The notes under the pieces: model-generated | The model's database searches: none | Seen by the model: only the letters and a program-made list of their open reading frames with translations | What the model was told of the DNA's origin: nothing | Made by a program: the position numbers and the translations under genes | Assembly: GCA_016748015.1 (NCBI GenBank) | Contig: JAAOMT010000230.1 | Coordinates: forward strand, 62,001 to 126,000 | DNA length: 64,000 nucleotides | From: Geosiphon pyriformis uo1 | Lineage: Eukaryota; Fungi; Glomeromycota | Direction: 5' to 3' | In this document: one piece after another, positions 12,389 through 54,935 of the stretch | How positions within the stretch are numbered: position 1 is the first letter of the stretch | Layout of the letters: every line of letters begins with the position of its first letter

Positions 12389-12742
12389 GCGTAGGTAATG
12401 GGAAATTGTTGTTAAGTGTACCTTTCAATAGTTTGGTTGATTTCTCTAATTATTGGTGCAAAACTATAGTTCCTTGGTAAGTTGGTGTGTTAGAATAATT
12501 CTGTGTAAAAGTTTTCTCTTGCTGCTTCAATGTTAACTGTTCCTCTTAAGCATTCAGTGATTTTGTTGTTGACGTAAAAGTTGAAGACTGATTCAGCTGA
12601 GTAATGATTACTGTTCAATCCTAATTGTTGGCTGTATTGTTGAAACAAAGATTTCGCAAATCCTAAATGGTTTGCTCCTATATTTTCTGATTCTGCCACT
12701 TTTGGTTTGGTGTTATTGGTGCTGGTTCTCTGTAGGATTATA

Positions 12743-12759
12743 CCTCACAGAGAGCACCA
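12743..12759 (-). promoter_or_regulatory. Primer binding site of copy A (TGGTGCTCTCTGTGAGG)
   Basis: Starts with TGG 2 nt after the LTR end; near-identical PBS in E (54060-54076) and D (29995-30011). The tRNA is not identified (Met-e- or Ile-like 3' end). Confidence 0.8.
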
Positions 12760-12761
12760 AA

Positions 12762-25889: not shown

Positions 25890-26750
25890 TGTTACTCATA
25901 GAAATATAGAAAATATATTAGCATGATTATTAGCCAATCAGAAGTAGGCGTAGTAAATGTGGAATTCCAAGATTCCTCTTAGGAATTGCAGGATTCTAGG
26001 AATTTCAGGATTCCCCAATGAGGAATTGCAGAATTCCAGAATTCCAGAATTCCTCTCAAAGGAATTGCAGGATTCCAGGAATTGCAGGATTCCTGTCATG
26101 AAGAATCGAGGAATTGAGGAATCTCAATTATGTATATATAGCAACAGGATTAGAAGCTGAAAAGACAGACCTCTTAGTTTAGATTTAATCTAAGCAAACC
26201 TCCAAATCACAAGCATCTAATAAATAACTATTTGTTATCTCAAACTCATTTCCACTATCAACACTTCATGTTGATAGTAATTAATACTTAACCACACTGA
26301 AACAATAGCTTTTGATCATGGCTATTGACAAAATACTAACTTGCAAATTACCTTGGCTTATTTCTTTCTTTCTTTATTTTATTTTATTTTCTTTATTTTC
26401 TTGCTTTGATTTTATTGTTGTTTACTAACTCTATTGAGGATTAATGCATGGGGCACTGATGTCAGGATAAATGTGACTGGTAAAAGACCCAGAAATAAGA
26501 GTAAAACACTTGATTGAGGATAGCTTACCAGGAGGAATACTGGCCATCAAGCTGAGAAAGAAATTGACAAAACTGCAGTTTCGGAAAGCTACAGATAAAA
26601 CTATCATCATTGAATCTCTGTCCATTATACAAAGAACTCAACCAAACCCTTCAGATACCAAACCTTCAGATCATTGACAACGAAAATAGCTTTGAGCACC
26701 AAGTTACAGGTTCATATTTAATTCAACACCAGAGATTGTTATCTGTAACA
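25890..26750 (+). mobile_element. Solo LTR, family A
   Basis: TGTTACTCATAG...CTGTAACA; TSD ATGT/ATGC; CCAAT 25934, GGAATTCC array, TATATATA 26133. Confidence 0.93.
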
Positions 26751-29700
26751 ATGCTTAGATTTGATTGTTTTGCTAAAAAATGGTCAAATTTGAATAATAG
26801 TAAAGCTTTTAAGATCATGGACATAATTTAGAACAATAAGAAATTAATGAATGTTTTTAAACATTTGTTAATAATTCAAAAAAATATAAAAAATTCAAGC
26901 TTTATAAGTCAAAATTAGCTGAAAAAGCATTTGTTAAGAAGACAATCAAAAAGTACATAGAAAGTTTTTGTTTTAATAAAAAAGATATAATAAAAAGTAT
27001 TTTAGATTGGTCTTTTTGCAAGATAGTTTTGAATTATTTTGTGGTAGAAAGTAAGTTGATTTTGGAACCAGAAGAGATAAAACTTAGTGTTAATAAGATT
27101 ATGAAAAATTAAACAAAGAAATAAACTGTATCTTAAATAATGCTTGATTTATGGATTTGCTAATATGCATTTTTAAATTATGTAAATAATAATGCTTTTT
27201 CTAATATAATAAAAGGGATCAGTATAAGAAAATTGCTTTTGGTAATTAATAATCTGCCTAATGACAAAGCTGCTGGTTTGTTTGGCATTTTTAATAAACT
27301 TTGGAAATATGATGATAATAATGTAATAGAGTGTTTTTTGAATTTGTTAAATACATGTTTGTTTTTTGGTAGTGTTTTAATTTTGTGGAAAAGAGCTTGG
27401 GTCTTGATAATCTTCAAATTTTATGATTAAAATAGAGTTTTGATAAACATCTGACTTATTGCTTTAATTGAAATGGCCAGAAAAATTTTCTTTAAAGTTC
27501 TATCTGATTAAATTTTGTTTACATGTAGCAAGTATAGTATTTTCTATGATAATAATTTTTCTGTTCTAAAAAGCACATCTATTTAGTTTTTTGTATTTAC
27601 TGTTGGATTAGTAATTAAAGATGCTTTAAAAAAAAATAAAAAACTTTAGTTAGTTCTGTAGAATATGCACAAAGCATATAACTTAGTTGATTGACACCAC
27701 TTGAAAGCTAGCTTGTAATGGATCAAAATATACAACAGATTTATAAAATTTTTTGGCAGTATACATAAGGATAAAGTTAATAAAATAATAATTGATTTTG
27801 GCTCTTGGGTAATTACAAAGTACATAATGAATTAAATCAAAGTAAAATCTTTTTATCTCTCTTTTGGAGAATTTTTTATGATTCACTTTTGTTTGAGGTT
27901 AAAAAACATGAACATTTATGTGAATATTAGATTGATACTAAGTTTGTAATAAAATGTCATCTTTTTTTGTTATTGGCACATTTGTGGATAATATAATTTG
28001 GGTTAAGGATTGTTAAGCTTCTATACAATATGCTTTGGATATTGTTAGTGAATTTTTTTTAATCAATAATATTTCTATTAATAATAAAAAAACTGTGGTT
28101 ATTTCTATCAATCAAAGTATTAAAGTTGTCTCTTTGAAAATCAATAGCCTACTAATTTTAATAACCAAGAAGAGTAAAACTTACAGATATTTGGGGATTT
28201 TTTTGTCAACTGAGAGATTGTCCAAGCCAAGTTTGACCAAGATTTATTCTGATGTCTAATTCTTTGTTAATGTGGTTTTCAGAAAAATTATTATGAATAA
28301 ACAGTTCTTGTATTTGGTGTTAGCTATTTTGCAATTTATAATTAGTTATAGAATTTAGTTTAGTTTTGTCTTGTCAAGTGTGTATTACAAATGGAATATT
28401 ATAATTAGAAAAGATCTCAAGTCTAAAGCCTGTTTGCTATGTAATTTTCTTAGTGAAACTTTATATTATCTTTTTTTATATGGTTTAAAACTGTTTGAGC
28501 AAATGCAGTTTAAAAAAAAATTAGCTGCATTAATTATCTTTTCTAATGCTTTAGACATTTTTAAACATTTATTTAATTACAGATTCTTAAATTTGCAGAT
28601 TTTAAGTTGGGCTTTTTTGAATTTTTTGCAATTTTTTATCAAGTTATATGTTAATTCAATAAACAATTTTTTGGTTGAAGTGGTAAAAATTTTTTTGGAC
28701 TTTAAGTTGTCTTTAATAAACAATTTGCCCAATATATTTTATAATTCTGATAAGTTTTTAATGTTGGTTATTTTAGGGCAATTTTTGTATCTTAGTTCAA
28801 TTTATTTTTTTAAGTAGTTTAAAATTGTATTTTATGATAGACTTTTAGATAAAAAAAACAATATAATAGACTGAAAAACTTTTTACTAATAGAAAAAATT
28901 ATATTTTAAAGACTTTGTATCTTATTGGTTTAAAGTACATCAAGATTTTTGCATAATAAAGATTCTTTATTGGTTGATTTGGCTGAAAAAAATCAGTTAT
29001 CTGGCTTGAAAATTTTGAAATCAAGAAAGTTTTTTAATGTGTAAAGTTGTTTATATAAAATTTGGTCTGGCTTTATAGAAATTTATACAGATGGGTCTTT
29101 AAAAAATACTGGTTTTACTAATATTGCTAATAAAACTACTGCTTATTTTTTAGCTATAGATATAAATATTAGTATCAAAATGCATAGACTTCTGTCTTTT
29201 ACTATGGCAAATTATAGGCTGTTGCTTTATTTTTAGAGTGTGTTCTATTTTTTTATATAGTAATTTTGTATTTAGATAGCCAACTTACTATTGATATATG
29301 TGCATCTAAAATATTGTTACAGTTAAAACTCATAGTTTTTATTAGTTATTACATGTATTAGCCACTAATGACATATAATTAGCCACCCTATTTTTAAATA
29401 GTGATTATTGACCTGATCAATGACCTGACCATTAACCTGATCATTGACCTGGTCATTGACCACTTTCAATAGATATATAAGTGATGAGTCTCTTAGTTGT
29501 AGAAAAATATCAATGTAAGGAATCAAGACAATCAAAGAAATAAAATAACAAACTTCCATCTCAAACATTCTCTTATCACTAATTTCTCTTTCCCTACCTT
29601 CAAGTATCTGAACATTTTTTGGATAAAAGATTACTTGTTGGCAATTCTTGAAATGTGTAATTGCAGTATTTGAAGATTATTTGAATAAATGTGACTGAAG

Positions 29701-30040
29701 AGCACAAGTTGATACCTGATATTAAATTCTAAGAGTGCTGACGTAAGGCATAGAATTTTACCAGCAGTTATCAATTGTTAACAGTACAGACTATCTCTCT
29801 ACCTTCAGATTCCCTTGTTACTTTTTGAAAAGAATAGTGACTGAAATATTTTATGAGACTAATCTCACATATTAAATTCATATTCATTTAATTTGCTCAT
29901 TAAAGTTGAATTCCTTTTGATTATTTCCATCACTCTACAATTCTGTTCTCCCTTGCTATCCATTAGCTTATTACTCCAACCCATAACATAAAAGTGGTGC
30001 TCCCTGTAAGGTTGTCAAAATTTACTTATTTCCTTATTGT

Positions 30041-33000
30041 ATGGGTGATTATTTATACTTGCCACAGCAATCAGAAGAACACTTTGCAGCACACAACAGA
30101 AGCAACCTAGAGTTTATTGAACTCAATTCTCTGCCCTTCTGCTTGATCTGTTTTTCTGTTGAAAAACAATCTAGTAGACAATTCCAAGACTTTTGGAACT
30201 GGTTCCTGAATGAGCATTCAGCTGAAATCTACACAACTTATACAACCTATTACTTTAATCAAGCTTATTTTGAAGATGACTTTGAAGAAAGAAACAACAG
30301 TATCAATCAGCTCTTATATTCTACAACTTTTGAACAACAGCCCCCTGATTTCGAATATCTGAATCATCAAATTCACATTTGGATTGCTGCCCATCAATCA
30401 ACAGTAACTCTTCTTGAAACAGAAGAAGAAAGCTACCAAACAGCCCCTATTTTTGATCTCTTCTTAAGTGAATCAGAGCACTCCACACAAACAGTAACTC
30501 CTGAACCAATGGCCCAAGATCCAATACAAGCAAACATCCTGGCTGCCCTCCAAGACATATAAACTGCTTTGGGACAAAGAAACAACACTCCACTACTATT
30601 ATTCAGAGGTGATACACAAGATCCAATTGAATGGTTGGATGACTTTAAAAGAGCTGCTACAGCCAACCAATACGATGATGAGTACAAGTTTCAAATTGTT
30701 GGTGGCTATCTCTAAGGCTCTCTTGCTACCTGGTTCTTACAAGAAACTGATGCTAATGCCCATCAAAGAATCATTAGATGAATGCTAGCAAATGCCAGAG
30801 AAAACAACACCTCTTTCACAACCCAGTTTGAAAACAAGTTCAAAACCCCAATCTTGATATCCAAGTGACACATAGAATTAGAAAGAAGAACTCAAGGCCC
30901 TGGTGAAATTGTAACTAAATATGCTAAAGCAATCAGAAAGTTAATCAAGTGTGTAGATTTTAGAAGAAATTGGACAGAAGAGCAAAAGATTCATTTCTTC
31001 ACAAAAGGATTGAGAACCAATTTATCTTATGCTCTTTGGCCTCTTTTGGCTCTGAAAAACAATTCTACAATGAACATGGCTATTGAACTTGCCCAATAAA
31101 TTGAAGACAACCAAAGAATACATTTGGAATCTACACTTCTAGTTTTTGCTCCTGCTTCTGTCATGGCTCTTGCCTCTCAAATGACTGCTGCCTCTTTTGC
31201 TGCCTAAACTCAAAATCCAAATGAACAATTAATTGATAAACTCACAGCCAATCTTGCCCAGTTATTAGAACCTTTGGCACAAGCAGTTAGAGATAACCAA
31301 CAACCACAAAGACCCAAATATGAATCATGTTTTAATCAGTTCTAGCAACCTCCTTATCAAAGACAGCAAAATTGTGGTCCTCTTGTATATTATAGATGTG
31401 GATTAACTGAACATTTCTCAAGAGATTGCAAGAATCCTCCTTTACCTTCTCCAGTTTCCAGAAATAATGACAATTAAAACAATAGACCTATCAACAATAA
31501 TGCTCTCAATCAAAAACCCAACCATACCAACATCAATTTTTTTGGAGAGGATCCTTTAGTTAAAGCCACAGTCTATTAGTCTTTAAACTGATAAGTGCAT
31601 CTCCAAAGAGTGAGAGTGCAAGCCAACTAGAAGAAAACCCTTTTTTCACTTTTAACTTAACTAATAATAACCATGACATGGATGAATTAGCAATTAACAC
31701 TTCTGAATCAACCAGAAAAAAGAGAAAAGCCAAGGTTGATTTCGTTCTAGATCCCAACAAAGTCTCAACTTCTACTGCTGATAACAATGAGCCACCAAAA
31801 GCCAAAGTTTTTAAGAACTCTCCAAAGTTGGAACCCTCAGAAATTGTACAAAAATCTGAACCCTATTCTGTTGTCAAAGATCTCATGGAAACCCCAGCAC
31901 ATATTACCTTTGGCCAGTTAATAACCCATCCACAGTTCAGAAAAAATCTCCACAAATCTCTAATTCCCAAGAAAAAAACACCAAAGACCAATAAACACTC
32001 TCGCCAAGCTAGACTTGCTAACAACAGCAATGTCACTCCTCTAATTTGCAAAGCACAAGTGGCTGGTTACTTCATTGACTTGATCCTAGACAGTGGATCA
32101 TCTGTTAGTGTAATTGCCAAACACTTCCTTGAAGCAATTGGCAGAAAAATTGATAAGCCTTCCACCCAACCAATGACCAACATACATGGTGACAAGAAAA
32201 AAGGTCTAGGCATTGCCAAAGCTATTCCTGTCCACATCAATGGCATCAGTATTGAAACTGACATGGAAGTTTTTGAAGCTAAAAAATACACCATCATTGT
32301 TGGCAATGAGTGGTTTAAGAAAACAAAAGCCTTACTTGACTATGAACTTTGTGAGCTAACCATAAGATGTGGTAAAAAACCCATTGTGGTTAAATGTTAC
32401 CATTGGACAACTCCTCCAGCAACCAAACAAAATCAAGAAGATGAGCAATCAGAAGAATCAGATGATAAAGAGAGTGATGAAAAAAATGAACAAGAAAAAC
32501 AAAAAGAAACTACTGAACTCACTTACACTATCTTTATTAGCAATAGCAAGCCACTAGATAATGTTAAAGCTGATAGAGAGGGAATCATTGTAAATGGCAA
32601 GCTGATCTGCTGGCCCTACTATGATATTCTAAGAAGAACCTTTGACCAAAAGCCTGGCAAGAAAGCCAAATACAGTTATTGGTGGCATGGCCCTTGTGCC
32701 CAGTGCTGGTGCAATCAACTCTTGTATTCTCCAAATGATGAATGCAAATCATGCCTGATCTATTACAAAAATTGGGAACCAATTAGCCTAATACCAAGAA
32801 ATGAATTAAAAGAAGTACAGAAGTCCTTTGAGAATGAACCACCTAAGATTCAATTATTAGTAGTAAAACAAAGAGAACCCTTCTCAGAAGAAAAAAAGAT
32901 AGACATTAAAAATCTGTTGGCAAGAAACAGTCCAGTTATCTCAAAAAAAGGTAATACTCTAGGATGAACCCATGTGATACAACACACTATTACCACCAGA

Positions 33001-34275
33001 GAAACTCATCCTATCCATTTGAAGTCTTATCAGTCCAATTGTCACAATGATGAGTTTATCAAGAAAGAGATAAACCACATGAAAGAATTTGGATTTATAC
33101 AAGAAACCAAGAGTAAATGGGCTTTTCCAGTTGTAGTGGTATTCAAGAAAAGTGGAACCCTATGCTTCTGTATTGACTACTACCAATTAAATGTCATCAC
33201 TGAAAGAGACATGTACCCACTTCCCAAGATTGATGCAATGCCAGACCAATTCAAAGATGCTGCTTTCTTTTTAACCATTGATTTAACTGTTGGATTCTGA
33301 CAAATAGAGATGGATCCAGAAAGCCGGAAAAAAACTGCCTTTATCACCAAGTATAGCACCTATGAATTCACAGTCATGCCTTTTGGTCTTACCAATGCTC
33401 CTCCCACCTTTCAATGCTTAATGAATAAAGTATTTGAATCAGTGAAAAAAAACTTTGTTCTGGTCTATCTGGACGATATAATGGTGTACTCAAAAACCTG
33501 GGATGAACACCTTAAACATTTGCAAAAGGTTTTTGATCTTCTCAGAAATACAGATCTCAAAATCAACCCAATCAAATCTTTCTTTGGAAGACAATCCACC
33601 CAATTCTTTGGCCATCTTATTACAAAAGATGGAATCTTTTCTGATCCAGCCAAAGTAGAAAAAGTTCAAAACATAAGACAACCAATGAATATTCATGAGT
33701 TATATTTTTTTCTTGGTTTGGCCTCTTATTATTGCAAATTTGTTAAGGATTTCTCCAAAATTGCCTCTCCACTCAATCAGCTACTCAGAAAAAATGTCAA
33801 CTACTATTGGAGCACATATTAGCAGAAAGCATTTGAAATCTTCAAAGAAAAATTGGTTACAGAACCTATTCTCAAGCAACCTGATCTGAATCAACCTTTT
33901 ATCCTTCACATTGATGCATCTGGTTATGAACTTGGTGTTGTTCTCTCACAAAAAGATGAAGATAGCAAGGAACATACAATAGCCTATGCCAGTAGAACTC
34001 TTACACCAGCAGAAAAGAACTATTCAGTTACTGAGCAGGAATGCTTAGCAGTAGTTTGGGCTACTAGCTACTGGAATAAGTATTTTCTTGGTGTGAAGTT
34101 TTTGGTAGTAACAGATCACCAAGCTTTGGTTTGGCTGTGCAACAAAAAAAGACTAGAACATAAATGGATAGCCTGCTGGATACTCCACTTAGATGAATTT
34201 GACTATAATATTTAACACCATAAAGGAGCTAATCATTAAAATGCTGATGCTTTTTCCAAATTTACCATCAAATGA
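30041..34275 (+). pseudogene. Copy D gag-PR-RT-RNase H polyprotein (many C>T/G>A stops)
   Basis: LILDSGSS protease, WWHGPCAQCWC..CKSC, MPFGLTNAP, YLDD, IDAS, EQECLAVVW, TDH, NADAFSK; TGA at 34273-34275. Confidence 0.9.
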
Positions 34276-34339
34276 CAGTACAACCTTCCAAACCAAACCA
34301 ACCTAATTATTAGTAATTCTTTTACAACCAAACACGATA

Positions 34340-35625
34340 ATAGACTTGAACAACTACTCTGCCTTAATAGAATTTTTGGGTAAAGAACAATACCCACCAG
34401 AATACACTTAACAGCAAAAAGAACATTTGCACAAACAATCAAATTTTTATTTAATCCACCAGAACCAATTATACAAAAGAAATAAAAAAAATTCTGACTG
34501 CCCCCAGAGAGTCATAAGATTTAAAGAAAAAGAAATTGTGATCTACAACATGCATACTGATCCATTAGCTGGACACTTTAGAAAAACAAAAACAATTTAG
34601 AAAATTCTAGCTTGCTATTATTGGCCTATCTTGGGAAAAGACATTACTGAATATATCAAAATCTGTAATACCTGCCAAAAAAGAAGAAAATCCAATCACA
34701 AAGAAAACATCTATCCAATCTCTGTTGGCCAATCCTTTAACAGAATTGGTATAGATGTTATTGGACCATTAACAGTAACTCCTAATGGCAACAGATACAT
34801 TATCACAGCTATTGACTATCTTACAAAGTGAGTAGAAGCAAGAGCCACCCCAGATCAAACAGCAGTTTCCATTGCTAATTTCATTTATGAAGATATCATT
34901 TGTTGTCATAGCTGCCCCAAAAAACTTTTATCTGATAGAAAAAGAGCTTTTCTTAGTACACTGGTTAAAGAACTTTGTAGAAAAATAGGAATATGTCACA
35001 AACTTTCTTTCCCTTATTACCCCCAAACAAATAGTCTAGTAGAATGTTTCAATAGAATACTGTGTAAAACCTTAGCCAAAACAAGTAAAGAAACAAACTT
35101 ATGGGACAAAATACTGCCTTCAGCTTTGTTTGCTTATAAAACTGTGAATCATGACATAACAAGTTATAAACCCTTTTTCCTGCTTTATGGACAAATAACA
35201 ACACTACTAATAGAAACTGATATTAAGACAATACTCTTTGAAGAAATTACAATAGGAAATTACAAAGACATTTTGCAAAGAAGACTTGGTACCATTCTTG
35301 ACTTATTGGTAGAGGCATGGATAATTGCCTTTAAAAAGATAAAACAGTTCCAAGAGAAGCTTAAGAAAAAAAAAATCTATAAAACACTTTCCTTAAGCAT
35401 TGGTGACTTGGTTTTGGAATACTGTTCAGACAAAAACAATGTTTATAGTGATAAATTCTTTAGCCGATGAAAAGGACCCTTTATAGTCAACAAAGTTCTG
35501 AACAATAGTTCTTATATTTTTCAAAATTAATCTGAAACAATCTTTAATGATTGTTCTATTCATGGCACATAACTCAAGAAATATCACAAATGATCTGATT
35601 GGTTATCTGTTGTGGTAATACTGAC
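34340..35625 (+). pseudogene. Copy D integrase
   Basis: H..GHF..CNTC, IDVIGP, SD, PQTNSLVE, GPF; begins in a different frame from RNase H. Confidence 0.88.
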
Positions 35626-35694
35626 CCAAATAATCAGCAAAAATCAGATATAAATAAATGCACTACTCCCAAAACAGAGGTATCTTTAATCAAC

Positions 35695-36351
35695 ATGAAC
35701 AATTATTTTCTGGATCAAAACATTTAAAATGCTTTCTATACTCTTCATAAGTATTGGATTAAAAACTATTCAAATGCTACTCTGACCATTGGAAAACAAA
35801 CTACAATAACTGACAACAATAGAACACATACTGTTATCAGACCAAAGAAAACAACTACCAGAAGAAAAAAAATTGGTAGCAAAATAGATAAGTATTTGCT
35901 AGAAAGTATAACAGCAACAATACTTATATCTTCTATTACAATTGGAAAAACAATTAAAAAAATCTTGCCCATAGACAAAAACTTGTCATATGAAAGACAA
36001 TTAGAACTCTATGGTTACCTTGGTGAAATCATAGAAGACATAAAGCTTATGAAGAAAACAACTTCTGAGATACAAGTGGAAATTTTGAATATTGTATGAT
36101 TAGATATTCCAAGCATTTTGACCATTGCAAGAAGAGCCAAAATTCTTATACAAAGATTTGGTCTCTTGGACACAAAGCTCATTTTGCCTTAAGTTTTATA
36201 TACCTTATCCACAAAAAATTTCAACAAACTAGTTAGTTTTGAGTTAGATAAAACTCTTCAAATAGAGTATCCCCTAAATAGTTTGATTTTGCCGGAGCTC
36301 AATCTCTTTGGAGAGGATAATGTTACAGTTGAAACTCATAGTTTTTATTAG
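35695..36351 (+). pseudogene. Copy D ORF3 (unknown function), reads through the PPT into the 3' LTR
   Basis: MNNYFLDQNI..LYGYLGEII..IARRAKILIQRF..LSTKNFNKL..PELNLFGEDNVTV; homologous to ORF3 of C and E. Confidence 0.7.
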
Positions 36352-37943
36352 TTATCACATGTATTAGCCACTGATGTCATATAATTAGCCACCTTATTTT
36401 TAAATAGTGATCATTAATCTAGTCATTGATTACTTTCAATAGATATATAAGTGATGAGTCTCTTAGCTGTAGAAAAATATCAATGTAAGGAATCAAAACA
36501 ATCAAAGAAATAAAATAACAAACTTCCATCTCAAACATTCTCTTATCACTAATTTCTCTTTCCCTACTTTCAAGTATCTGAATATCTTTTGGATAAAAAA
36601 TTACTTGTTGGCACTTTCCTAAAATGTGTAATTGCAGTATTTGAAAATTATTTGAATAAATGTCACTAAAAAGCACAAGTTGATATCTGATATTAGATTC
36701 TAAGAGTGCCAATGTGAGACATAGAATTATACCAGCAGTTATCAATTGTTGACAGTACAGACTATTCCTCTACCTTTAGATTCCCTTGTTATCTTTTGAA
36801 AAGAATAGTGACTGAGATATTTTATAAGACTGATCTCGTACATTGAATCCATACTCATTCAATTTACTCATTGAAGTTGAATTCTCTTTGATTATTTTCA
36901 TCACCCTACAATCCTGTTCTTTTTTGCTATTCATTAGCTTATTACTCCAACTCATAACAATATTATTAACTGTACTTGATTTTTATAATCAATACTAGAT
37001 GGTGTTACCGGAGGTTTTTGGGGTCTCTTTTTTTGAATGTTGTTAATGCCTGTTTGCTGTGAATTTACGTTTTCTGGATGTGGTTGAACCTCTAATAACT
37101 GAATTTATCTTCAAATTATCTCCTATAATTTGAACTGCTGAGCTTATAAGTGGAATGGCCAATTCCGTGCCAGTTATTTTATGTAGTTACATTGTAGTAA
37201 ACATCAACTCTTTCCCAGGAATTGCTTGTCTGGAAGCTCACTAAAAATGTGTAGTTACTTTGCTGTAAAAGTCAACTCTTCTACAGGAATCCCGTCTGTA
37301 GGCTACCCTAATAATTATAATAAGAAAAATAAAAGAAAAGTAAAAAAATGTAAAAGAAATAAAATTCTGTCAAGGGAAACGTTTTCTATCCAAGCCTGGA
37401 GTTACTAACAGTTTACTGAAATTGGTAGCTAATCAATTTCAAACTGTTTAGTAGGAATTTGGTTAATTTCAAAAGGAAAATAATTAAGAATTTGATTTTT
37501 CAAATTATTTGATATTTATTTCGTTTTTGTGTGTAAAGGATGATTCTAGTTGTTAAATCTGAAGTAAGATATATTTTCTTGAAGAGGGAAGCTCTTCTTT
37601 TATACAACTTGTTGTAACACTATTCTATGAACTTGAACTTTGCTATTTTTTATAATTTTGCTGAACTAAAGTTATATTTTGGCAAACTACAAGTTATTTC
37701 TGCAAACTATTAGATATTTTGATGAACTATCAATTATTTCGGCGAATTCCTACAAATTTTGGTGAACTTTTTGAATGTTACATAGTTCGGGGTATTGCAT
37801 GATTGATCATCGCAATTAGGTTACATTTGTGTTATGTACAAATTGGGTTATTAATTAAATGATAATTTTGGATATTTTGCTAATGTAATAAGTAATAATT
37901 TGAAATGCTAATTAATGATAAGAATTATAAAGGTAATTTCATG

Positions 37944-38663
37944 CTAAGCAATATTTCTAATTTTGTCTGGTAATATAACCTCCTCCTCAAGACTGAGCTC
38001 CATCGAAGTCCAAGTACTATCTGTAATTTCCAGATAATAATCCAAAATTATTGAAGAAATTTGGTCTGAAAATTGTTGAAATTTCAGTTTTGTGAGCTTT
38101 CCAATGTATTGAATCTTCAAAGATTGTAAAATTGGGTTTTGTAGAACGTTTTCACAGGTGTGGAATAGGCCATAAAGTCTAAGAGCAGCTCTTAGTTTAT
38201 AATGACTGTTTGTAGGTCCCGCTGTTGTCTTGAATTTGTTGTAGAGTTGTTTCCAAATAGCTTCTTTTGTGAAATTTGCTGCTGTAAGCTCCTGTTTTTG
38301 TTCATGAAGTGTTTTTCCAATGTAGAAATATCTATATATTGAAGTATAGTTGTAGTTTTCTTTATTAAGACACAGTTGAAGTTTTTGTTGAATAGTAGCA
38401 TTTGGTGGAATACTAATGAGAGTGAACATTAAATTTTCTCTTAAGGCAAGCTTCAAGAGTTTTGGTAGATGAATTCCAGAATAACTTCTTGTGTTCTTTT
38501 TGTAAGGGTAATAATTTCGTGAATTTGGGGCTAAATTGGCAACTATTTCTGTTTGGGTATAATTAATATGTTTTTCTGTAATAGTGATAGATAATTCAGG
38601 TATTGTCTTTAAAACTAGCATTAGTTTTTGAGATATTTGTTGAATATTTTGAGGGATAGTCAT
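37944..38663 (-). CDS. Copy C ORF3, intact 239-aa protein of unknown function
   Basis: Uninterrupted ATG-started ORF between integrase and the 3' LTR; homologs in B, D and E. Confidence 0.8.
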   Translation of the reverse strand: MTIPQNIQQISQKLMLVLKTIPELSITITEKHINYTQTEIVANLAPNSRNYYPYKKNTRSYSGIHLPKLLKLALRENLMFTLISIPPNATIQQKLQLCLNKENYNYTSIYRYFYIGKTLHEQKQELTAANFTKEAIWKQLYNKFKTTAGPTNSHYKLRAALRLYGLFHTCENVLQNPILQSLKIQYIGKLTKLKFQQFSDQISSIILDYYLEITDSTWTSMELSLEEEVILPDKIRNIA

Positions 38664-38807
38664 TATAAAATTTGAGTGAGAAAATAGATTGAAATTATTT
38701 TTGGTATGTGGATTTTTATGTTATTTTTGTTTTTTAGTGTGTTTTGTTTTGTTTTTGTTTTTGTGAAATTATTTTTAAATTATAAGGGAATAATTAGTAA
38801 AATTAAA

Positions 38808-40182
38808 TTAAGTGTTCAAGTTGGAAGATTGTTCAATGACAACTATTGGTTCTAAGTTTTGGGGAATATCTTCGGAATTGACTAAAGAAGAATGTATACC
38901 AATTTGTGGAATTAATAGTTCTGAAATGATAGTGTTTTAAACAATCTCCATGTGCAACTTTTGCTAAGATTTTGTCATCAAGTCTTAACTTGTATGATCC
39001 ATTGCCTAGTATTTCATGGATAAAGAATGGTCCATTCCATTTATTTTCAAATTTTCCACTCCATTATTTTTCAGCTTTAGTTCTGTATAGAAAAACTTTG
39101 TTTTCAACTTTAAAATCATTGGTAACTGGAGGCAATTTGTTGTTATGCTATTCTTTTTGTTGAGTTTAGAAGTGTTCAATATGGGTGGCTGCTATTCATT
39201 ATTTTCTTTTCAATGTGCTGAAAAGTGTATAGGCTCTTCATTAAAGCATTTCCTGGAAATTGTTTTTATTAATTGGTTGTGCTGGGTATGTTTCTACTAT
39301 GAAACTAATTGGTAATGTTGCTGTCCTTCCATAAGTTTAATCAAATAGTGTGTGTTTTGTGGTATCTTGTTTTAGTGTTCTGTATGCTAATAACACTGAT
39401 GGAATAAAGATATTCCATTCTTGCTCAAAATTGGTTGAGACTTTGGCTAATGACTTACACAATGTTCTGTTAAAACGTTCTACAAGTCTGTTTGTTTGTA
39501 GATGGTAGGGCAAAGACAGAGGTCTTTTGACATTGAATCGTTCACAAATTTCTTGTATCAGGTTGTTCACAAAGTGTGTCCCCTGATCGGATAAAAGTTC
39601 AATTGAACATCCATGTCTACAAATGATGTCTTTGTAGATGAAATTTACTACTGACTTCACATCTGCTCATTGAATGGCTCTGGCTTTGGGCCATTTAGTA
39701 AAATAGTTTACAGCTACTGCAATATAATGGTTTCCTTGAGTGGTAATAGATAGTGGTCCGACTAAATCAATACCAATTCGGTCAAAGAGTTGTTCAACTT
39801 TGATTGGATTTAATGGTTTAGTAGAGCATGTTTCTTTTCTTCTTTAACAACTATCACAAGATTCGACATATTTGTGAATGTCTTTTCTCATTCGAGGCCA
39901 AAAGTAGTATTCTAGTGTTCTTTGGGTGGTGCTGTCTTTTCCGAAGTGTACTGATGAAGGATCTGAGTGCATGTTATATAATATAGTCTCTTTTTTCTGT
40001 TCTTGTATTAATCTGAGTGGTTTGTCTGGGTTTTTGAAATTTCGATGATAAATAATGTTGTTGTGTAGAAAATATTGTTTGACTTGTTGTTGTAATTGAT
40101 GTTTTTCATCTGGAGACCAATCTGTTGGGATTGTTAATGTTTCCAAATATTGTTTAAGATTGTTGTAGTTTTCCGAATTTAT
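38808..40182 (-). pseudogene. Copy C integrase
   Basis: HSDPSSVHFGK..CDSC, IDLVGP, SDQGTHF, QTNRLVERFN, WNGPF, EPIVVI. Confidence 0.9.
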
Positions 40183-40233
40183 TGTTTGTTGGCTGTTTTG
40201 GTTGGTTAAGTTGAGTGTTGGTTTTTGTGTTTT

Positions 40234-42065: not shown

Positions 42066-42468
42066 TCATTCAGTTGAACCAAAACCTTGGGTTCCTTTAT
42101 TGCTTTTTCCTAATTGTTCTCTTTGATTGACTAGTTGCAAACCTGAAATGTTGATTAGGAGTAGGTAAATAGCTTGGGCAATTTTTTCAGCATGTTCGAT
42201 CTTGAATGGTTTGTCAGTTTTATTTTGAAGCATCACTATAATGTCTCCAGTATATTCAGCATCGATTATTCCTTCTCTGACATTGATTTTTTTACTTGCC
42301 AGAGAGGACCGGGAGGCAATTTGAACCATTGCTCCTGGTGGAATTTCGAGTGCAATTTTGAGGTTGATTTTTGTGAGAGATTTGGGTTTGAGAACAAGAG
42401 TATCCTTGTCTGGATATCTTAGGTCATATCCAGCATCAATTTCGTGTGCTTTTTCAGGTTTTATTCCT
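42066..42468 (-). pseudogene. dut: Copy C dUTPase domain
   Basis: Motifs AGYDL, SRSS, GIIDAEYTG, KIAQ, KGTQGFGST. Confidence 0.93.
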
Positions 42469-44767
42469 TGTCTGTTGTTGTCAAAGTATTTGAGTTGTAA
42501 GGCAGGCTGATTTTCAATAAGATAGATAGGTATTGTTTCAATTTCTTCCGTTGCTTCAGGTTCTCCAAATTCAATTTTGTTCTCATCACTTTTGCTGGGC
42601 AAGAGGATGCTAAGAGCGTAGCATTCAGAACACCACTGTTTATCACAAAGCATAATGCATTCTTCACATAGCCTAATGTTCATTTGCTCTAATTGGTGAA
42701 TTTGAGCTTCTTGAGTTGGATAGGTGTGACTTGCAATTTGGTGGTAGACTTTTACTTCATCTTCGTAATTGAATCCAGCTAATTCCATGGTGTATTCAAT
42801 GTATTCTGCTTCCTTCATTTGACAAACATCTTCTTTGGTAGCTTCATTAATTAATGCCATTGCTAGGTCGAAAATCATCTCAGCATCATGGGAGTAGTGA
42901 TAAAGTTTGTTGAGAGCACTGTTGTATGCTGCATTAAAGAGTGTTCTTCTTTTGACTTTTTCTGAAATTGATAAAACATATTGGCAGGTTTGATCACAGA
43001 CTCCTCCTCTCATTGCTACATCAATCTAATTGCATTCTTCTGGTAGCATATCTCCACAAGTCAAACAAGGGGTATTGTTCTATTTTCCGCTTCTTTTTAT
43101 TAGATGGCCTCATTGTTCTCTGTGGCAAGCCTTGCAGTAATAACAAGTATGACTTTTATATTCTTCTTCAGGTAAAATGCAGGCTCCCATTGACGATAGT
43201 TTCTTGTAACAGTTCTTATATTTAAGGGGAATGTAGGGGCATTGTTTCCTTGGTTCAGGCTTTGAGTAAGAGATATTCTATCCAGAGGTTTCGAGTTCAG
43301 AGTGTAGGGTAAAATGTTCTTGTTCAGTTTCATCAGCCCAATTGGACATTGATCCAAGAGCCATGAATGTTTTGATTATTGGTTTTTTTTTCTGGCTCGA
43401 ATTCAAAAGCCGGGGCTTTTTCGGAGCATTTGTTAAATGTTCCACAAGTGGCAGGTACTCGGGCATGTTGTCCTTGGTAAGAGATTTGTAGTTCTTGGGT
43501 TTCTTAGTCTAATTTCACATTGGCTTTTTGGAGCCAATCATTTCCGACAAGAGCTTGATACTGGGGCGCATCCATTATAAGAACTTTAACTGAAATAGTA
43601 ATTTCATCAAGAGTGAATGGAAAATTGTCAATTTCTCCTACTGGAGTTTTTTTCATGTTATCGGCAGTAACAATTACTGTTTGAGCTGGTCAGTCGACAT
43701 TTCTCTTTAACTGTTGTATTAACTGGTAGATAATAATGCTTCCAGTGGATCCATTGTCTAGAATCAAGCGAATTGCCTTTCCTTCAACTTCTGCTTTAGT
43801 GTACATAGCCATAATTGCTTTTTGTTTATTGGTGGCTGCATTGCTAAGCAGGAATAGTGACTCATTTGCTTCGAACTCAAAAGGGAATATATCTGAAAGA
43901 TTGGCATTTTCAGCAATTCTGGCTGGTGGGATTGTGGTGGGAGTATAAGAAGGGTTTTGTTGTTGTTGTGCTGCAGCTCTACCTTCTGAGAGTGCAATAT
44001 GGTGAAAATTCTGTTCTTCTGGCATTGTTAAATAACTGGGTTGAGTGTGATAGTGGTTGGGTTTTGGTTGAGTGGAATTTTGGGGAACCAATTGGTTGTT
44101 TGAACTGATTCTATTGTTGTTTACTTGGTATTGGTTTTATGATGTGAACTGATTTTGTGTAATCAGTCTTCGAGCAGGTACTTGATAATGTTATGTGGGT
44201 GGTTGTTGGTATTGCTGTTGGATTGGCTGTGGGGCAGGCTAATAATAGTTACTTTGATATTGGAGTCTTGGTAGATAGTAAGCTGGTAGTGATGGTTGAT
44301 AATAAGATTGCTGTGGTGGAGGGTAATGTTGATTACTCCTATTTTGTTGGTCTCATTGTAGCTTTCTGCAATCTCTTTTTCAGTGGCCAGAGATTCCACA
44401 GTAATGGCAATTTTGAGGCTGGTTATTAGAAAGTGGTGCAAAGTTATTTTGATTTCGTCTTTGGGGTGGTTGATATTTTTGGAATTGCTGTTGTTGTTGA
44501 TTGGTGAAATAGTTTTCAACTTTCTTTGTGAGTTGGTCAATTTTTTTCTCAGCTGCTGAGCTGGTTTTTCTAATTGCCAAATTTACAAGTTTTGTGCAAT
44601 TGGCCTCTTTTATGGCTATTTCATATCTTTTTGCATGCTGTATGACAGAGTTTAAATCTTCTGGGGCATGTGGATAAACCTTTTTAATTAGTTTATCTTT
44701 TAGACCAGCAATAAATTGATCCAAGATTTGAGCATTGGAATAATAATCATTTGTTTCGAGTTGGCAA
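42469..44767 (-). pseudogene. Copy C gag C-terminal half, protease and Cys-rich domain (gag N-terminal half at 54936-56018)
   Basis: DQFIAGL, CHYCGISGH, LILDNGS, CDQTC, CEEC..CSEC. Confidence 0.87.
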
Positions 44768-45673
44768 TGTTACAGGTGATTATTTCTGCGGTTGAATTAA
44801 ATAATGAACCCATAACTTGGTGCTCAAAAGCTATTTCCATTGATGATGTTCTGTAAGTGTTGTATTTGAAGGTTTTGATGGGTCTGAAGATTTTGGTTGA
44901 GTTCTTTGTATAATGGACAGAGATTCAATAGTGTCAATAATAGATGTATTTTTCCAAGAGTTTTCCCAATTTTTTTCTTAGCGTGGTGGCCAGATTTAGT
45001 CTGGCAGTTGTGCCCTTCTAGTAAGCTATCCGATAATATATAAAATTCTACTCTTATTTCTGGGTCTTTTACCAGGCTATCCTTGATGTCAATAACTCAG
45101 CACTTAATCCTTTTAATCAGTTAGTATACAATAACAAATCAAAATAAAATAAAGAAAAAGAAAATAAAAAAAATAAAGAAAGAAAGAAATAAGCCAAGGC
45201 GATTTTGCAGATTAGTATCCCGTCAATAGCCGTGATCAAGAGCTATTGTTTCAGTGTGGTTAAGTATCAATTACTATCAACATAAAGTGTTGATAGTGAA
45301 GAGTGAGTTGAGATATGGAATATTTATTTATTTGATGATTGTGTTTTCTAGGCTAAAAATTCTGTGATATCAATTCTGTCTTTTCTGTTTCTAACACTAC
45401 TGCTATATATACATAATTGAAATTCCTCAATTCCTCGATTCTTCACGACAGGAATCTTGGAATTCCTGGAATCCTGCGATTCCTTTAAGAGGAATTCTGG
45501 AATCCTGGAATCCTACAATTCCTCGTCGGGAATCCTGAAATTCCTGGAATTCTGCAATTCCTGAGAAGAATCCTGGAATTCCACATTTACTATGCTTACT
45601 TCTGATTGGCTAATAATTATGCTAATATATTTTCTATATTTCTATAAGTAACATTATTCCCTCCTTTTTAATA

Positions 45674-46327
45674 TTAAGCTCCGTCAAAATCTAACTCGTG
45701 TAATTTCCCTTCTTGAAGTATTTCCTGGATTTCGTTTTCGAGAATTACTTGTGTTATTTGGGTCTGTAATTCTTCAAATTGAGCATTGGTGATTTTTCCC
45801 AATTGATTACTGGTAACCATATTCATTGCTCTGTTGCATAATATTTCTGGTTTATCTTGAAATGCTGTGTGTATTTAGTATATGGCTCGAGCTTATGTGG
45901 ATAAGTTGTTTTTTCCCACAAAATGTCCTAATTGTTGTAGTATTTTTTTGTTGAATAATTGCTTTGTTTTATCCATATATAGATTCTGAATATTTACATG
46001 TTGTCCCAAGTAGAAATAACAATAGTTTCGTGGGAATTGTTGTATCCATCAATTCCAAGTTTTTTTAGTCAATTCTTGATATAGTGACTCTTTTGTCGAT
46101 TCTTTTATTGCTAATTTTACTTTCGCCATGATTTTGTTCACAGTATTTTCAGTTTTCTTCTGTGTTCTGAATTGAAATGTTTTTCTAGTATCTTGATATC
46201 GAATGGTTTGTTAATTGATTGTAATCTCCATTTTCTGGTGTTGGATTAATTGAAAGAGTTGTTGTGCTAGTGAGTGAATGTTGTTTGTAATTTCCATTTT
46301 TCTGATATTTCCTGTCACGTCTACCAT
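45674..46327 (-). pseudogene. Copy E ORF3 (a few premature stops)
   Basis: MEITNNIHSLAQQL..YCYFYLGQH..ARAIY*IHTAF..QLGKITNAQFEELQTQITQVILE; aligns with ORF3 of C. Confidence 0.8.
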
Positions 46328-49630: not shown

Positions 49631-50025
49631 ACCTGTGGATCCGAATCCTTATATTCCTCTCGCTGTTATTCCTAATTCTTCCCTCTTTCCCACTGATACT
49701 AACTGAGTTATTCTAACCAGAGACAGGAATATTGCCTGTGCTATCTTTTCATTGGGCTCTATTACATAGGCCTTTTCTGAGTCATTTTGTAGCATAGTGA
49801 TGATATTTCTTATATATTCTGCATCAATTATTCCTCCTCTTATATTAATCTCTCTTTTCACTAAACTACTCCTAGATGCTAGTTGAACCATGGTTGTTGC
49901 TGGAATTTCTAGTGCTATTTTCAGATCAATGCAGGTGCGTGAATGTGGTTCCAATTTGATGGCATCTTTTTTTGGATATCTCAGATCAAACCCTGCATCA
50001 GTATCATGCACCCATTCTGGCATAA
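49631..50025 (-). pseudogene. dut: Copy E dUTPase domain
   Basis: DAGFDL, SRSS, GGIIDAEY, KIAQ, RGI*GFGSTG (all five dUTPase motifs). Confidence 0.93.
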
Positions 50026-53000
50026 TACCTTCCCTATTGTCACTATACCATTTCAACTCTTGTTTCTTGGAGAGATCTGGTAGTGCAATGTATTGTTCAT
50101 AGTTTACATCTAAGTTTGTATCTGAGTTGGAATCATTGTCGTTGTTATTGCCCTTTTGAACGGAGCTTGAACTGTTGTTGTCATTATCATTGTCAGAGTT
50201 TGAATCGTGATTGATCAGCAATTCTGATTCTGATGCGCAGCTGCTGATTGGTTCTTCCTCTTCCAGGATCGTGTAGATCATGCGTGGTGGTGGATTGTAA
50301 ATGAGGTCACACTCATCGCAATATTGGAAGTCACAGGGAATTAGGCAGTGTTAACATAGTCGAGTGTTCAACTGCTCTAACCATTGTTTTTGTTCTTCCC
50401 TTGTGGGTGCTAATTCTTGATAGTGTTTGTGAAATTGTTCTGGGTCCAAGAGGTTTATGATGGGTTCTGCATCTCAGTCAAGCTCTAAAGATTCTAGGAG
50501 GTTGTCTTTGATCGTTTTTATCTCTTCTGGCGTCACTCCTTCAATTTTTGCAAGTGCCATTCGCCAAATTTTGTCATCATCATGTGGGCAATTGTCCAGT
50601 CACTGTACTGCTCTTCTTCAGACTGCTTCTATTGGAGTTTTTTTCCTTACCCAGTCACTTATTAGAATCATGTATTGACATGATACGTTACATGTTCCTC
50701 CATGTCCAGGAATGTCATGCCACATTCTTTCATCCAAGAGAGTCTCTCCACAAGCTAAGCATGGCTGATTGTCCCATTTTCCTACTCATTTTGGTCTTCC
50801 AAAGTGTTCAAGAATGCATGGACAGCAATAGAACTTAGTTGCTGTTGAATATTCCTCATTGTCCCCACAGCATGTGCCCATTGACGACAATTTCTTGCCA
50901 CAATCAATGCAAATAAGCTTGGGTCAATGATAAGTAGATTGTTGTAGTGTAGTGTAAGTGTTATAAGCAGTGGTAGTTTGAGTGGTCTCTTTTTCTTTTC
51001 CCTTCCCCTTATTTTTATTGTCTTCTTTCCATTCCCAACTTGAAGTTGGTTTGCTCTCATCATGGTCGGTCCATGTCAGATCATCGGTTTCCCAGGTAAG
51101 TTCTTCCTTTTGTTTCCCTTTTTCCTAATAGTTGTCATCCCAGAAGAGTATTGGCGGCAGCTCATTGTGCTCTTCGTCAGCCCACGATACTTGGTAGGCT
51201 TCCCAGGTAGGCTTTTCTTTCTTCTTCTCCAGCTCAATCAATAGTTTCTCTCTTGGAGGAGTTTTGAAGTGGCCACATGTGGCTGGGACACGTATGTGTT
51301 GGCCCTAATATGTTAGCTGGAGTTCCTGAGTGTTCCAGTCTAACGTTGCATTGGCTTTGGATAGCCAGTTATTATCAACAAGAGCTTGGTATTAAGTGGC
51401 TTCCATTACTAAAACTTTAATGGGAGTCATGATGCCATTGACTTCAAAAGAGAAATTGTCAATTTCACTGATTGGAGTTTTGGTCACTCCATTGGCTGTG
51501 ATGATTTTGGCGCTGGCAGCTCAATCAACTCGGCGATCTAATTGATCCATGAGTTGTCTAGTGATTATGCTGCCAGCTGATTCACTATCTAGAATGAGTT
51601 TGATGAGGTGACCATCAACTCTGGCATCCGTGTACATGGCTGTTATAGGTTTCTTTTTGAGAGTGGCTCCACTGAATAATGGTATTGTTGTGTTTTCTTC
51701 AAGTTCAAAAGAAAAGATGGCTGCTAGGAATTCATTGCTAGAGATGGTTGCCGGTGGAATGGTGTTAGTAGGTACATGCTAATTGGATTTTGTGTTGTTG
51801 GAGGTGGTGTTTTCTGGGGTAACTAGGAGACTTAAATAATGTTGAGAATTTGGGTTTTGGACGCGACTGGTATCCAAATTCCAGGTGCATGATTCTGATA
51901 GTGAGTTTAGTGAACTGGAGATCAGTTGGTGAACAACCATCACCAATCTTCAGTTTTGAGTAACTCTGGATTGAGGGTTGCCTGATGTTATTTGAGCTGG
52001 GTTCTGGATTGGTGTTTGAATTGGTTGGGGTTGATAGATAATTTGTGGCTGCAGTTGATATATTACTTGTGGCTGCGGCTGATGAATCGGAGGTTGATAC
52101 ACTGACAGGTAATAGATTGGTTGCTGCATTATGGGCAGGTAATTATTTCAATATTGGTCTTGATTTTGATTTGGATAATAATTCAGAGTTTGGAACTGGT
52201 GATTGGGGTTTTGATATTGATTTCCTGATTGTTGGTTATTTAGACGCTGGTGACAGTTAATTTGGATATGTCCTTGTTTCCCACAATAGTGGCAGATACG
52301 CGTTTCCTGTTGCCACTGTTGATTGGTTGATGAAGATGGGCATGGTTGATTTTGGCCACAATTAGAGTTTCCTTGATTATTGCGTCATTGTGGAGGCTAA
52401 TAAATGATGTGATTGTCAACTAAGTATCCTTCCAATCTTTTATTAATTGATTCATTGAATTTCTCCAATTTGGAATCCAATTCAGATAATCCGTTCATGA
52501 CTAGATTAACAGCTTGGGCATGGTTAGCTTCTGACTTGGTGGATTCAAAATCTCTGGCGTGTGTAACTGCATCTTGAAGCATGCCAGGATGCAATGGACG
52601 TACATGTTGCAAGATGCTGCTGCACAGGCCATGGATAAACTGATTGAGTATCTGTGGTGCTGTGAAATAATTGGCGTCAATTGCTTGAATTTGGTGTAGG
52701 TTTCGATGGAAGCATCCCAGGTAAGTGGTGACTGCTTCAGTTTCTCCTTGTTTTATGGTGGTGAATGCATTAACTAGGTGATTGATGCTATTATTGTTGC
52801 TGAAATATCTCAGAAATTCCACTTTGAAGGCATTGAAATCTTGTGGTTTATTAATCAAGCTCTGGTACCATGAATTAGCAGTATTTTTGAGAAAGTAGGG
52901 AATGGTTTGCATTGCTTGTGCGTCATTCTATTCGTTGGCTGCGATGGCTTTTTTTATATTGTTCAGCCATATTTGAGCATCATCCTCTTCACCAGTAAAG

Positions 53001-54016
53001 TTGTTGAGTTTTGCGATTGGTGCGTAGGCCATTGGATCTAAGTTAGGTGGTTGTGGTGGCTGTTGAAGCAGTTGTTGTTGTTCTGGCTGTTGGGGTGGTA
53101 GCTGAAGTGACTGCTGTATGGGTTCGGCTAGGAAATTAATCGGCAGTTGATTGATGACAATTACTGGAGGTAAGTTTTGCTGATGAATTAATTCGGGTTT
53201 TTGATTTCTTTGATTTGGCAGTGTTCGAATATTCGGGGTTTCGATTTTCGGATTTTCTAACTGTTGTTAAGTTTAAAAGTTCGGTGTTTCAACTTCCAGG
53301 TTTTCAGTGATCAGGTGCTGGTAAGTGAATTTTTGATTCTCTGATTCTTCTTCCTCTTTTTTTGATTCCACTGCTTTCCACGGATCAGAGATTCCAAAAT
53401 CTGGTGGAGGCAGTGGTGATCAAAGTCCTGATGGGATTGATGATCGTAAATTAAATCCCTTAAAGTACTCACCGTATGGTCCTAACAATTCTGTTTTCCT
53501 TTGTCTACTTTGGAATGAGAATTGTCCAAATGCTGATGTCACAGTTGATGTGAACATGTCTGTTGATAATATGTTGATGGTGCTTCCAGGTATATAGTGG
53601 TAGGATGGGTTGCTTGGGGATTCAACTCTGTTTTTCTTCCAAGCAGGTGGCTGTATCTTTCTGGGTATTACTGCTGGTGTTTGTAATTTTCCCTTGCCTT
53701 TACTAGCATATGTAATTGGATATCTTTGTTGAGTGTGATGTTCAATTTCTTTGTTGATTTCAGTGATGATAGATGCAAAATTATGATTTGTTGGCAGGTT
53801 GGTATTTTGAATTAATTCCCTATAGAAAGTTTCTCTTGCTGATTCAGTATTCACTGGTGTTCCTAATAAAGAAAAAATCTTTTTGTTGATGTAGAAATTG
53901 AAGGCTGATTCGGCAGATATATGATTGTGGTTTAATCCCAAGTATTAACAATAGTGTTGAAATAAGAATTTTGCGAATCCTAAATGGTTTGCTCCTATAG
54001 TTTCTGATTCTGCCAC
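50026..54016 (-). pseudogene. Copy E gag, protease and Cys-rich domain
   Basis: QILNQFIHGL, CHYCGKQGH, ILDSES protease, CIDC, CLAC, CNVSC. Confidence 0.87.
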
Positions 54017-54935
54017 TTTTGGTTTGGTGTTGTTGGTGCTGGTTCTCTGTAGGATTATACCTCACAGGGAGCGCCAAATGTTACAGGTGATTATTTCTGT
54101 GGTTGAATTAAATAATGAACTCGTAACTTGGTGCTCAAAAGCTATTTCCATTGATAATGTTTTGTAAGTGTTGTATTTGAAGGTTTTGATGGGTCTGAAG
54201 ATTTTGGTTGAGTCCTTTGTATAATAAACAGAGATTTAATAGTGTCGATAATAGATGTATCTTTCCAAGAGTTTTCCCAATTTCTTTCTTAGCGTGGTGG
54301 TCAGATTTAGTCTGGCAGTCATGCCCTTCTGGTAAGCTATCCGATAATATATAAAATTCTACCCTTATTTCTGGGTTTTTTACCAGGCTATCCTTGATGT
54401 CAATAACTCAGCGCTTAATCCTTTTAATCAGTTAGTATACAACAACAAATCAAAATAAAATAAAAAAAATAAAAATAAAAAAAATAAAAAAAGAAAGAAA
54501 TAAGCCAAGGCGATTTTGCAGATTAGTATCTCATCAATAGCTGTGATCAAGAGCTATTGTTCCAGCGTGGTTAAGTATCAATTACTATTAACATGAAGTG
54601 TTGATAGTGGAGAGTGAGTTGAGATATGGAATAATTATTTATTTGATGATTGTGTTTTCTAGACTAAGGATTCTGTGGTATTGATTCTGTCTTTTCTGTT
54701 TCTAATACTACTGCTATATATACATAATTGAGATTTCTCAATTCCTCGATTCTTCACAACAGGAATCCTGGAATTCCTGGAATTTTGCAATTCCTTTAAG
54801 AGGAATCCTGGAATTCTGCAATTCCTCGTCGGGAATCTTGAAATTCCTAGAATCCTGGAATTCCACATTTACTATGCTTACTTCTGATTGGCTAATAATT
54901 ATGTTAATATATTTCCTATATTTCTATGAGTAACA

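Follow-up and report, generated by a model that had tools for sequence, protein, structure and literature searches.

Retrotransposons are known to carry additional sense-oriented open reading frames (ORFs) between pol and the 3' LTR (PMC7264820, PMC5408684, PMC6431247). Extra ORFs are common in LTR retrotransposons, and almost none has a known job. Precedents for a regulatory role include the family-specific VANC anti-silencers (PMC6719617) and nuclear aORF products such as GENE23 of Grande (PMC7264820). The clearest self-encoded anti-silencer or activator case in PMC6719617 is a plant DNA transposon. Retrotransposon dUTPase is recorded in PMC5408684 from basidiomycetes and rotifers only. TEs of Rhizophagus irregularis are methylated and targeted by small RNAs (bioRxiv 2021.03.30.436303), and a striking LTR expansion is described for the genome of Geosiphon (PMC11952901). 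The window analysed here, a 64-kb stretch of Geosiphon pyriformis DNA taken as a whole, was a nest of decayed Ty3/gypsy elements. In these elements, a third ORF (ORF3) was located between the integrase and the 3' LTR. Within a lineage of Ty3/gypsy, ORF3 is a conserved accessory gene that lies behind a separately encoded integrase.

The elements of the window are designated B, C, D and E, and the features needed to place ORF3 are as follows.

~1395-10363, plus strand: element B, with N gaps
~29315-36959, plus strand: element D
44766-45653 and 54077-54935, minus strand: LTRs of element E, which is nested in the gag of C
37003-37975, minus strand: 3' LTR of C; identity with the 5' LTR 95.8%; U3 includes an array with a 20-bp period at 37650-37719
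56064-57036, minus strand: 5' LTR of C; a PBS-like TGG tract comes next, and the 4-bp TSD has one mismatch
38809-40185, minus strand: decayed integrase of C, 10 stops in 420 codons, with RT-RH set apart by a stop at the conserved junction (~40234)

The LTR pairs of B, C, D and E had TG..CA ends, a PBS and a PPT. The 4-bp TSDs of C, D and E were read by eye, and transition mismatches were present in those of C and E. Pfam domains occurred in the order gag-PR-RT-RH-IN (Ty3_capsid, asp protease, RVT_1, RT_RNaseH, Integrase_H2C2, rve and SH3_Tf2-1). The host elements are Ty3/gypsy LTR retrotransposons. The target duplication of E read TTGC (44762-44765) and TCAC (54936-54939) on the element strand, as would result if one site had undergone CpG decay twice independently. 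The LTRs of C were more alike than those of E (90.8%), although E is nested in C; hence, either the LTRs of C were converted or LTR identity dates these insertions poorly. The C and E families were also represented by solo or partial LTRs at 11410-13563, 25890-26754, 57040-57538 and 59762-60553, and an E-like LTR end abutted the 5' LTR of C across the target duplication of C. A long N-terminal extension or upstream frame preceded the gag capsid domain in B (2177-3124, plus strand), E (53420-53944, minus strand) and C (55479-56039, minus strand). Probable host-gene exons were located at 15823-17851, a CpG-rich island between the TE blocks, and this gene presumably resembles a Sti1/Hop co-chaperone. 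ARAGORN detected no tRNA in the window.

The pol region was split in all five elements considered (B, C, D, E and the metagenome element L001) by a stop 3-6 codons beyond the RNase H end motif.

7471, ~34270, ~40234 and ~47800 of the window, and 772 of L001: pol-split stops

The integrase began 25-60 nt after this stop, behind an A/C-rich spacer, and its ATG was kept in E and L001 and was ATA in C and D. An integrase outside the RT-RH frame is a variant layout that is still Ty3/gypsy. The stop after RNase H and the separate integrase ORF in each of the five indicate that the element is at least tricistronic. A separate integrase cannot be packaged within Gag-Pol and must reach the particle by another route. 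This layout would suit an ORF3 product that acts as a cofactor of the particle or pre-integration complex, binding the free integrase or Gag and serving nuclear import or tethering to heterochromatin or other elements. In Pfam, the integrase ORFs of B and E showed an SH3-like module and lacked a chromodomain, and the elements of the window were nested or adjacent, both of which agree with such a cofactor role. Import of the pre-integration complex by an accessory protein is discussed in PMC7264820. The degree of conservation, considered below, bears on this explanation.

A dUTPase was situated between the protease and RT in B and C, according to Pfam, and in E, where it was evident in the frames; it was preceded by a Cys-rich stretch. 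No dUTPase was detected in D. Gypsy elements that bear dUTPase now extend to this fungal group.

42069-42460, minus strand: dUTPase of C
49649-50100, minus strand: dUTPase of E
5800-5934, plus strand: dUTPase of B

The position of ORF3 in element C is defined by three features.

37944-38663, minus strand (38663→37944): ORF3 of element C (P0001), 239 aa, ATG start, open frame
37979-38001, minus strand: conserved GGAGCTCA-type box and PPT of C, within the ORF3 frame; C, D, E and L001 all have an equal box and PPT before the LTR
38662-38816, minus strand: G-free run of 155 nt spanning the spacer from the integrase stop to ORF3; the longest run in 200 shuffles was 81

The first-pass annotation had reported an intact 239-aa ORF between the integrase and the 3' LTR of C. 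This ORF was present on the minus strand; the plus strand at 37944-38663 was closed and held no ORF3 frame. The start codon lay 145 nt past the integrase stop. The last 10 codons and the stop were inside the 3' LTR, beyond the PPT, and the read-through into the LTR that had been described for C and D was seen in both. Because ORF3 of C crosses the GGAGCTCA-type box and the PPT, its conserved acidic C-terminal tail is best read as a constraint on the DNA and not on the protein. The 145-nt spacer of C was 83% AT and was free of ATG and AG, and the lack of AG excludes a splice acceptor inside that spacer. L001 had a 73-nt G-free run at the matching place (shuffle maximum 65), and the runs of C and L001 both ended at the ORF3 ATG. 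The spacer ahead of ORF3 was long in these two elements and short in E (24 nt) and D (44 nt). Expression of ORF3 in E, D and B, with their short spacers, may occur by re-initiation after the integrase stop. In C and L001, internal initiation or an AT-rich internal promoter at the G-free leader could serve instead.

Decayed or partial copies were present in the other three elements of the window.

45674-46327, minus strand: ORF3 of E, 4 internal stops in 217 codons, ending just before the PPT
35695-36351, plus strand: ORF3 of D, 3 internal stops in 218 codons, PPT read-through into the LTR; probable remote homologue
7947-8301, plus strand: 5' half of ORF3 of B, on a scaffold segment between two N gaps; database copies begin at ATG 7989
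9698-9774, plus strand: true start of ORF3 of B, directly behind the B integrase stop, interrupted by an N gap

Since the 5' end of the B copy at 9698-9774 came right after the integrase stop, the post-integrase place holds despite the mis-ordered piece at 7947-8301. The remainder of the B protein was carried by P0360 and P0362. Scaffolding artefacts in B (7478-8321 and 2798-3355) appeared as duplications around 20-nt N gaps, in which 7498-7875 equalled 8648-9025 and 2798-3066 equalled 3087-3355.

The suggestion that all four families share ORF3 was firm for C, E and B and only probable for D, for which the standard tests failed. The E homologue was recovered by tblastn in the window (E=3e-8) and by hhalign against C (E=1.2e-5 over 183 columns), and the B homologue by the same two routes (E=2e-4 and E=2.8e-7, respectively). 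E and B matched each other in hhalign with E=0.0013, using the half of the B ORF3 that is present in the window. ORF3 of D had no tblastn match in the window and gave hhalign E values of 0.1-0.7. In hmmsearch, the 15 D proteins listed scored -3.8 to 7.0 bits, and 1000 shuffles reached 10.2 bits. A glocal whole-length profile test, devised post hoc after the standard local tests had failed, gave Z 4.8 for the D family (0/500 shuffles) and Z 3.4 for the D copy of the window (1/500), and 10 unrelated element proteins used as controls gave Z -0.7 to 2.1. Furthermore, ORF3 of D matched the others in slot, length, motif order and PPT read-through. D was the most distant element in integrase, in RT-RH and, on average, in ORF3. 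ORF3 of D is probably a remote member of the family.

Sequence searches placed nearly all further relatives in Geosiphon. With ORF3 of C as the query, 199 homologues were obtained among 329 candidates, and the best 120 comprised 119 hypothetical proteins of Geosiphon pyriformis and one protein of the window itself. The queries from E and D were translated with X at stops. The E query gave 113 matches among 169 candidates, all from Geosiphon, and the D query gave 129 among 389, of which the best 120 were all from Geosiphon. A C+E+B profile run over 1.84 billion representatives returned 118 matches, 95 of them new; 67 of the 95 were at least 50% identical to Geosiphon references and 28 were less than 50% identical. 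Ten of these 28 were examined and comprised six Geosiphon and four metagenome proteins. The more distant matches completed the B protein and added two Geosiphon lineages to the family, besides the four metagenome proteins. The motif had been likened to that of a helical family expanded in arbuscular mycorrhizal fungi. The searches gave no support for this link, as no named Glomeromycotina protein from outside Geosiphon was present among the matches listed (best 120 of 199 for C, 113 for E and best 120 of 129 for D) or among the 10 examined from the C+E+B profile. Many Geosiphon gene models were chimeric, with ORF3 pieces joined to integrase, gag, dUTPase or unrelated sequence (for example P0357, P0388, P0403 and P0360). 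Hundreds of "hypothetical proteins" of Geosiphon are ORF3 copies or such chimeras, which matters for the gene counts of this genome.

The metagenome contig L001, whose ORF3 is P0401, showed the order RT-RH, stop, integrase, ORF3, PPT and LTR, and its identity with C was 29% in ORF3 and 57% in integrase. Direct evidence for the post-integrase position of ORF3 came from the window and L001, and indirect evidence from gene models joined to the integrase tail, such as P0403 and P0404. A metagenome scan gave at least one locus from 587 stretches. None of the 601 pattern matches of an IMG/VR scan was confirmed, and a phage tblastn with P0401 gave no match. Across families, identity was 15-36% for ORF3 compared with 39-65% for integrase, and the motif order of ORF3 was retained. 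The fast divergence of ORF3, its kept motif order and the outlying place of D throughout fit vertical inheritance with lineage-specific specificity. An ORF3 that is far less conserved than integrase and RT would be unusual for an obligatory core partner, and a role as cofactor of the particle or pre-integration complex is somewhat unlikely.

ORF3 occupies the place of env in sense orientation, as would be expected if its product were env-like or a movement protein and carried the element from one nucleus, cell or host to another. The properties of the protein spoke against this role and bore out the earlier statement that TM helix and furin site are lacking. The maximum KD19 was 0.27-1.29 and R-x-K/R-R was absent in 11/11 ORF3 proteins, and the 0-3 Cys residues in each of the 11 were not conserved across lineages. 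The N-terminal Kyte-Doolittle window of P0001 peaked at 1.05, in a region modelled as an amphipathic helix and a hairpin. None of the 11 showed a hydrophobic segment, a furin site or a cysteine pattern, and ORF3 is thus not env. The predicted structure was also soluble and helical, and spread by an env-like or movement function is very improbable. The AlphaFold2 model from 70 aligned sequences had a mean pLDDT of 76 and a pTM of 0.64, with block means of 79-97 over residues 71-210. It predicted an N-terminal helix and beta-hairpin with low confidence (residues 5-37), a disordered basic linker (residues 39-61) and a compact helical domain (residues ~90-210), with a confident core at ~80-210. 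The results of hhalign, the profile search, the model and hydropathy together supported the proposed soluble, mostly alpha-helical, non-env accessory protein across divergent Gypsy families. An earlier model from 54 close sequences was poor (pLDDT 47), and the fold search made on it (best Z 6.2) was discarded.

A fold match had been sought by AlphaFold and Foldseek, and none was found at E<=0.001 in PDB or BFVD. The best hits of a wide VIA fold search over 48,161 chains (Z 5.1) and of a VIA re-look (Z 5.5) were to a designed protein and to designed helical repeats, respectively; fold searches that end without a clear match do not show the fold as new. Most rows of the fold searches were unrelated helical bundles, and the N-terminal module was barely covered. 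Of two sequence searches of PDB, one gave a best E of 0.17, to importin-5, and the second gave no match. In Pfam, PHROGs and NCBIfam, no ORF3 match was above the curated cut-off or under E 0.001; an SH3 match occurred only in a chimeric gene model.

Several hints converged on residues 103-175. The commonest Pfam match of this segment was DUF1016_N (PF17761), which may hold an HTH. ORF3 residues 104-174 were weakly similar to its positions 17-86 (E 0.063), and 6 of the 70 members matched it (best E 0.0028). However, the 13.8 bits of ORF3 compare with a gathering score of 32.8, and ORF3 has no nuclease domain. DUF1016_N is the N-terminal helical domain of YhcG, given in PMC1189080 as unknown and mainly helical. 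In the same segment, PHROG 23683 matched with E 0.0012, and all 57 residues of a sigma-F fragment could be aligned (rmsd 2.4, Z 4.3). Among the best six rows of an Atlas search, one cluster had 15% HTH_3 members (score 0.85). These hints, each below significance, point loosely to a three-helix nucleic-acid-binding unit.

The linker carried a further motif. R/H/K-X2-5-PY, the shared C-terminal motif of PY-NLSs (PMC2408616), was found in the linker of 16/31 C1, 7/24 C2, 4/5 B, 1/2 F and 3/5 metagenome proteins. It was absent from the linkers of E (0/11) and D (0/11), where basic clusters occurred. The least decayed-looking homologues (P0390, P0401 and P0450) had pI values of 5.1-5.9 and were not basic overall. 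An NLS-like linker suits a nuclear regulator and also fits a cofactor of the pre-integration complex. The linker, basic and disordered in the model, might also belong to an RNA-binding post-transcriptional factor, which could act in Rev-like export, assist translation of the polycistronic message or suppress silencing by small RNAs. Such roles would suit an at least tricistronic element, and Gypsy elements rank among the main targets of small RNAs in Rhizophagus irregularis (bioRxiv 2021.03.30.436303). However, no RNA-binding family or fold match stands out, and broad silencing suppressors are disfavoured in transposons (PMC6719617). A post-transcriptional role is distinctly unlikely.

Between two C subfamilies, 44 fixed differences had a mean BLOSUM score of +0.25 compared with -0.57 for 204 private changes (P=0.001). 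The core/linker split was 9/23 for the fixed differences and 87/71 for the private changes (P=0.006). Depletion of fixed changes in deeply conserved columns was not significant (4/31 vs 45/131, P=0.08). Fixed differences that are conservative and avoid the core suggest purifying selection on the active ORF3 lineages, which is thereby shown indirectly, in a protein-level test on sequences. The proteins compared were annotated copies, a sample in which open frames are over-represented. Of the 65 residues identical between C and L001, 35 were encoded by different codons, and the identities at the three codon positions (0.38 / 0.57 / 0.45) gave no clean 1>3 coding pattern.

ORF3 of C had been noted as intact despite a decayed pol. 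The contrast itself was real, with 0 stops in 239 codons compared with 18 in 892 pol codons; as evidence of continued use, it is weak. From the pol rate, ~4.8 stops would be expected (Poisson P ~0.01), which would favour a copy that was domesticated or is still selected in place, apart from its dead pol. However, 8 of the 18 pol stops were TGA, many of them probably from CGA codons. Because ORF3 of C has only one CGA, TGA stops were left out, and TAA and TAG alone gave an expectation of 2.7 (P ~0.07). The copy was also picked for its open frame as one of three full-length copies in the window. Moreover, 32 of its 239 residues were not the one commonest in the subfamily, a count close to the highest among the other copies (16-33), and many of these departures were transition-type Pro and Glu changes. 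Domestication of the C copy, or selection on it in place, is highly improbable. This copy is itself decaying, and its open frame may be luck. ORF3 of E and D decayed like their own pol (4/217 and 3/218 stops).

We infer, with a probability of roughly 0.4, that the ORF3 product is a soluble nuclear regulator that binds nucleic acid in an element-specific manner and acts as an activator or anti-silencer at its own LTR. Nucleic-acid binding, trans-activation or anti-silencing had been proposed for the product from the outset, and the proposal is weakly supported by hints that all fall below significance. Beyond a conserved soluble helical accessory protein, all functional steps are what we infer. 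ORF3 would enter the nucleus by the PY-type or basic signal in the linker. The helical core would then bind nucleic acid belonging to the same element, with the LTR as the most plausible site, and the helix-Gly-x-x-Asn-helix segment (133-167) may provide the binding surface. The targets could be the family-specific U3 repeats, and binding to the LTR may promote transcription or counter silencing by methylation. The CpG observed/expected ratio was 0.05-0.66 in the elements compared with 0.89 in the flanking host-gene region, and this depletion makes a silencing pressure to be resisted plausible. U3 arrays differed by family, with periods of 20 bp in C, 8-40 bp in E and 12 bp in the 5' LTR of D; in a 10-mer test, only 3 of 9 LTR sequences were above all 25 shuffles. 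Repeats in U3 are a frequent feature of LTRs, where host factors usually recognise them. A more far-reaching form of the proposal is unlikely. It holds that, in Geosiphon and related fungi, a Gypsy lineage with three cistrons (gag-PR-dUTPase-RT-RH, free integrase and ORF3) supplies its own LTR-binding protein, specific to the family. That protein would have an undescribed helical fold, co-evolve with the U3 repeats and act as a trans-activator or anti-methylation factor. If it exists, an LTR-binding ORF3 carried by retrotransposons would help explain the LTR expansion of the Geosiphon genome. ORF3 is a tractable case: its product is small and soluble, its core is predicted with confidence, and many divergent variants exist, each tied to its own LTR.

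In the literature on Geosiphon and fungal LTR and Gypsy elements, extra ORFs, dUTPase and split integrase, a description of the ORF3 family was not found, and a mention in the Geosiphon genome papers, Repbase or supplements is possible. The proposed logic of ORF3, and only the logic, resembles that of VANC in the VANDAL elements of Arabidopsis (PMC6719617), where a fast-evolving accessory protein, family-specific short tandem motifs and a methylated element also occur together. VANC belongs to a DNA transposon of a plant host, that is, to another element class, and no similarity of sequence or fold to ORF3 was found. The bdelloid rotifer elements Juno, Vesta and TelKA (PMC5408684) are likewise of Gypsy type; a dUTPase separates their protease from RT, and pol is followed by a third ORF. 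Their third ORFs encode env, a GDSL esterase or a DEDDy exonuclease, families to which ORF3 showed no match. The ORF3 family fits none of the extra-ORF types named in PMC7264820, PMC5408684 and PMC6431247. It is like aORF-3S (PMC7264820) in position, in orientation, in its many copies per family and in having no homologue detected outside elements. Unlike aORF-3S, which are mostly env-like with TM segments, ORF3 is soluble, fungal and located behind a separate integrase ORF.
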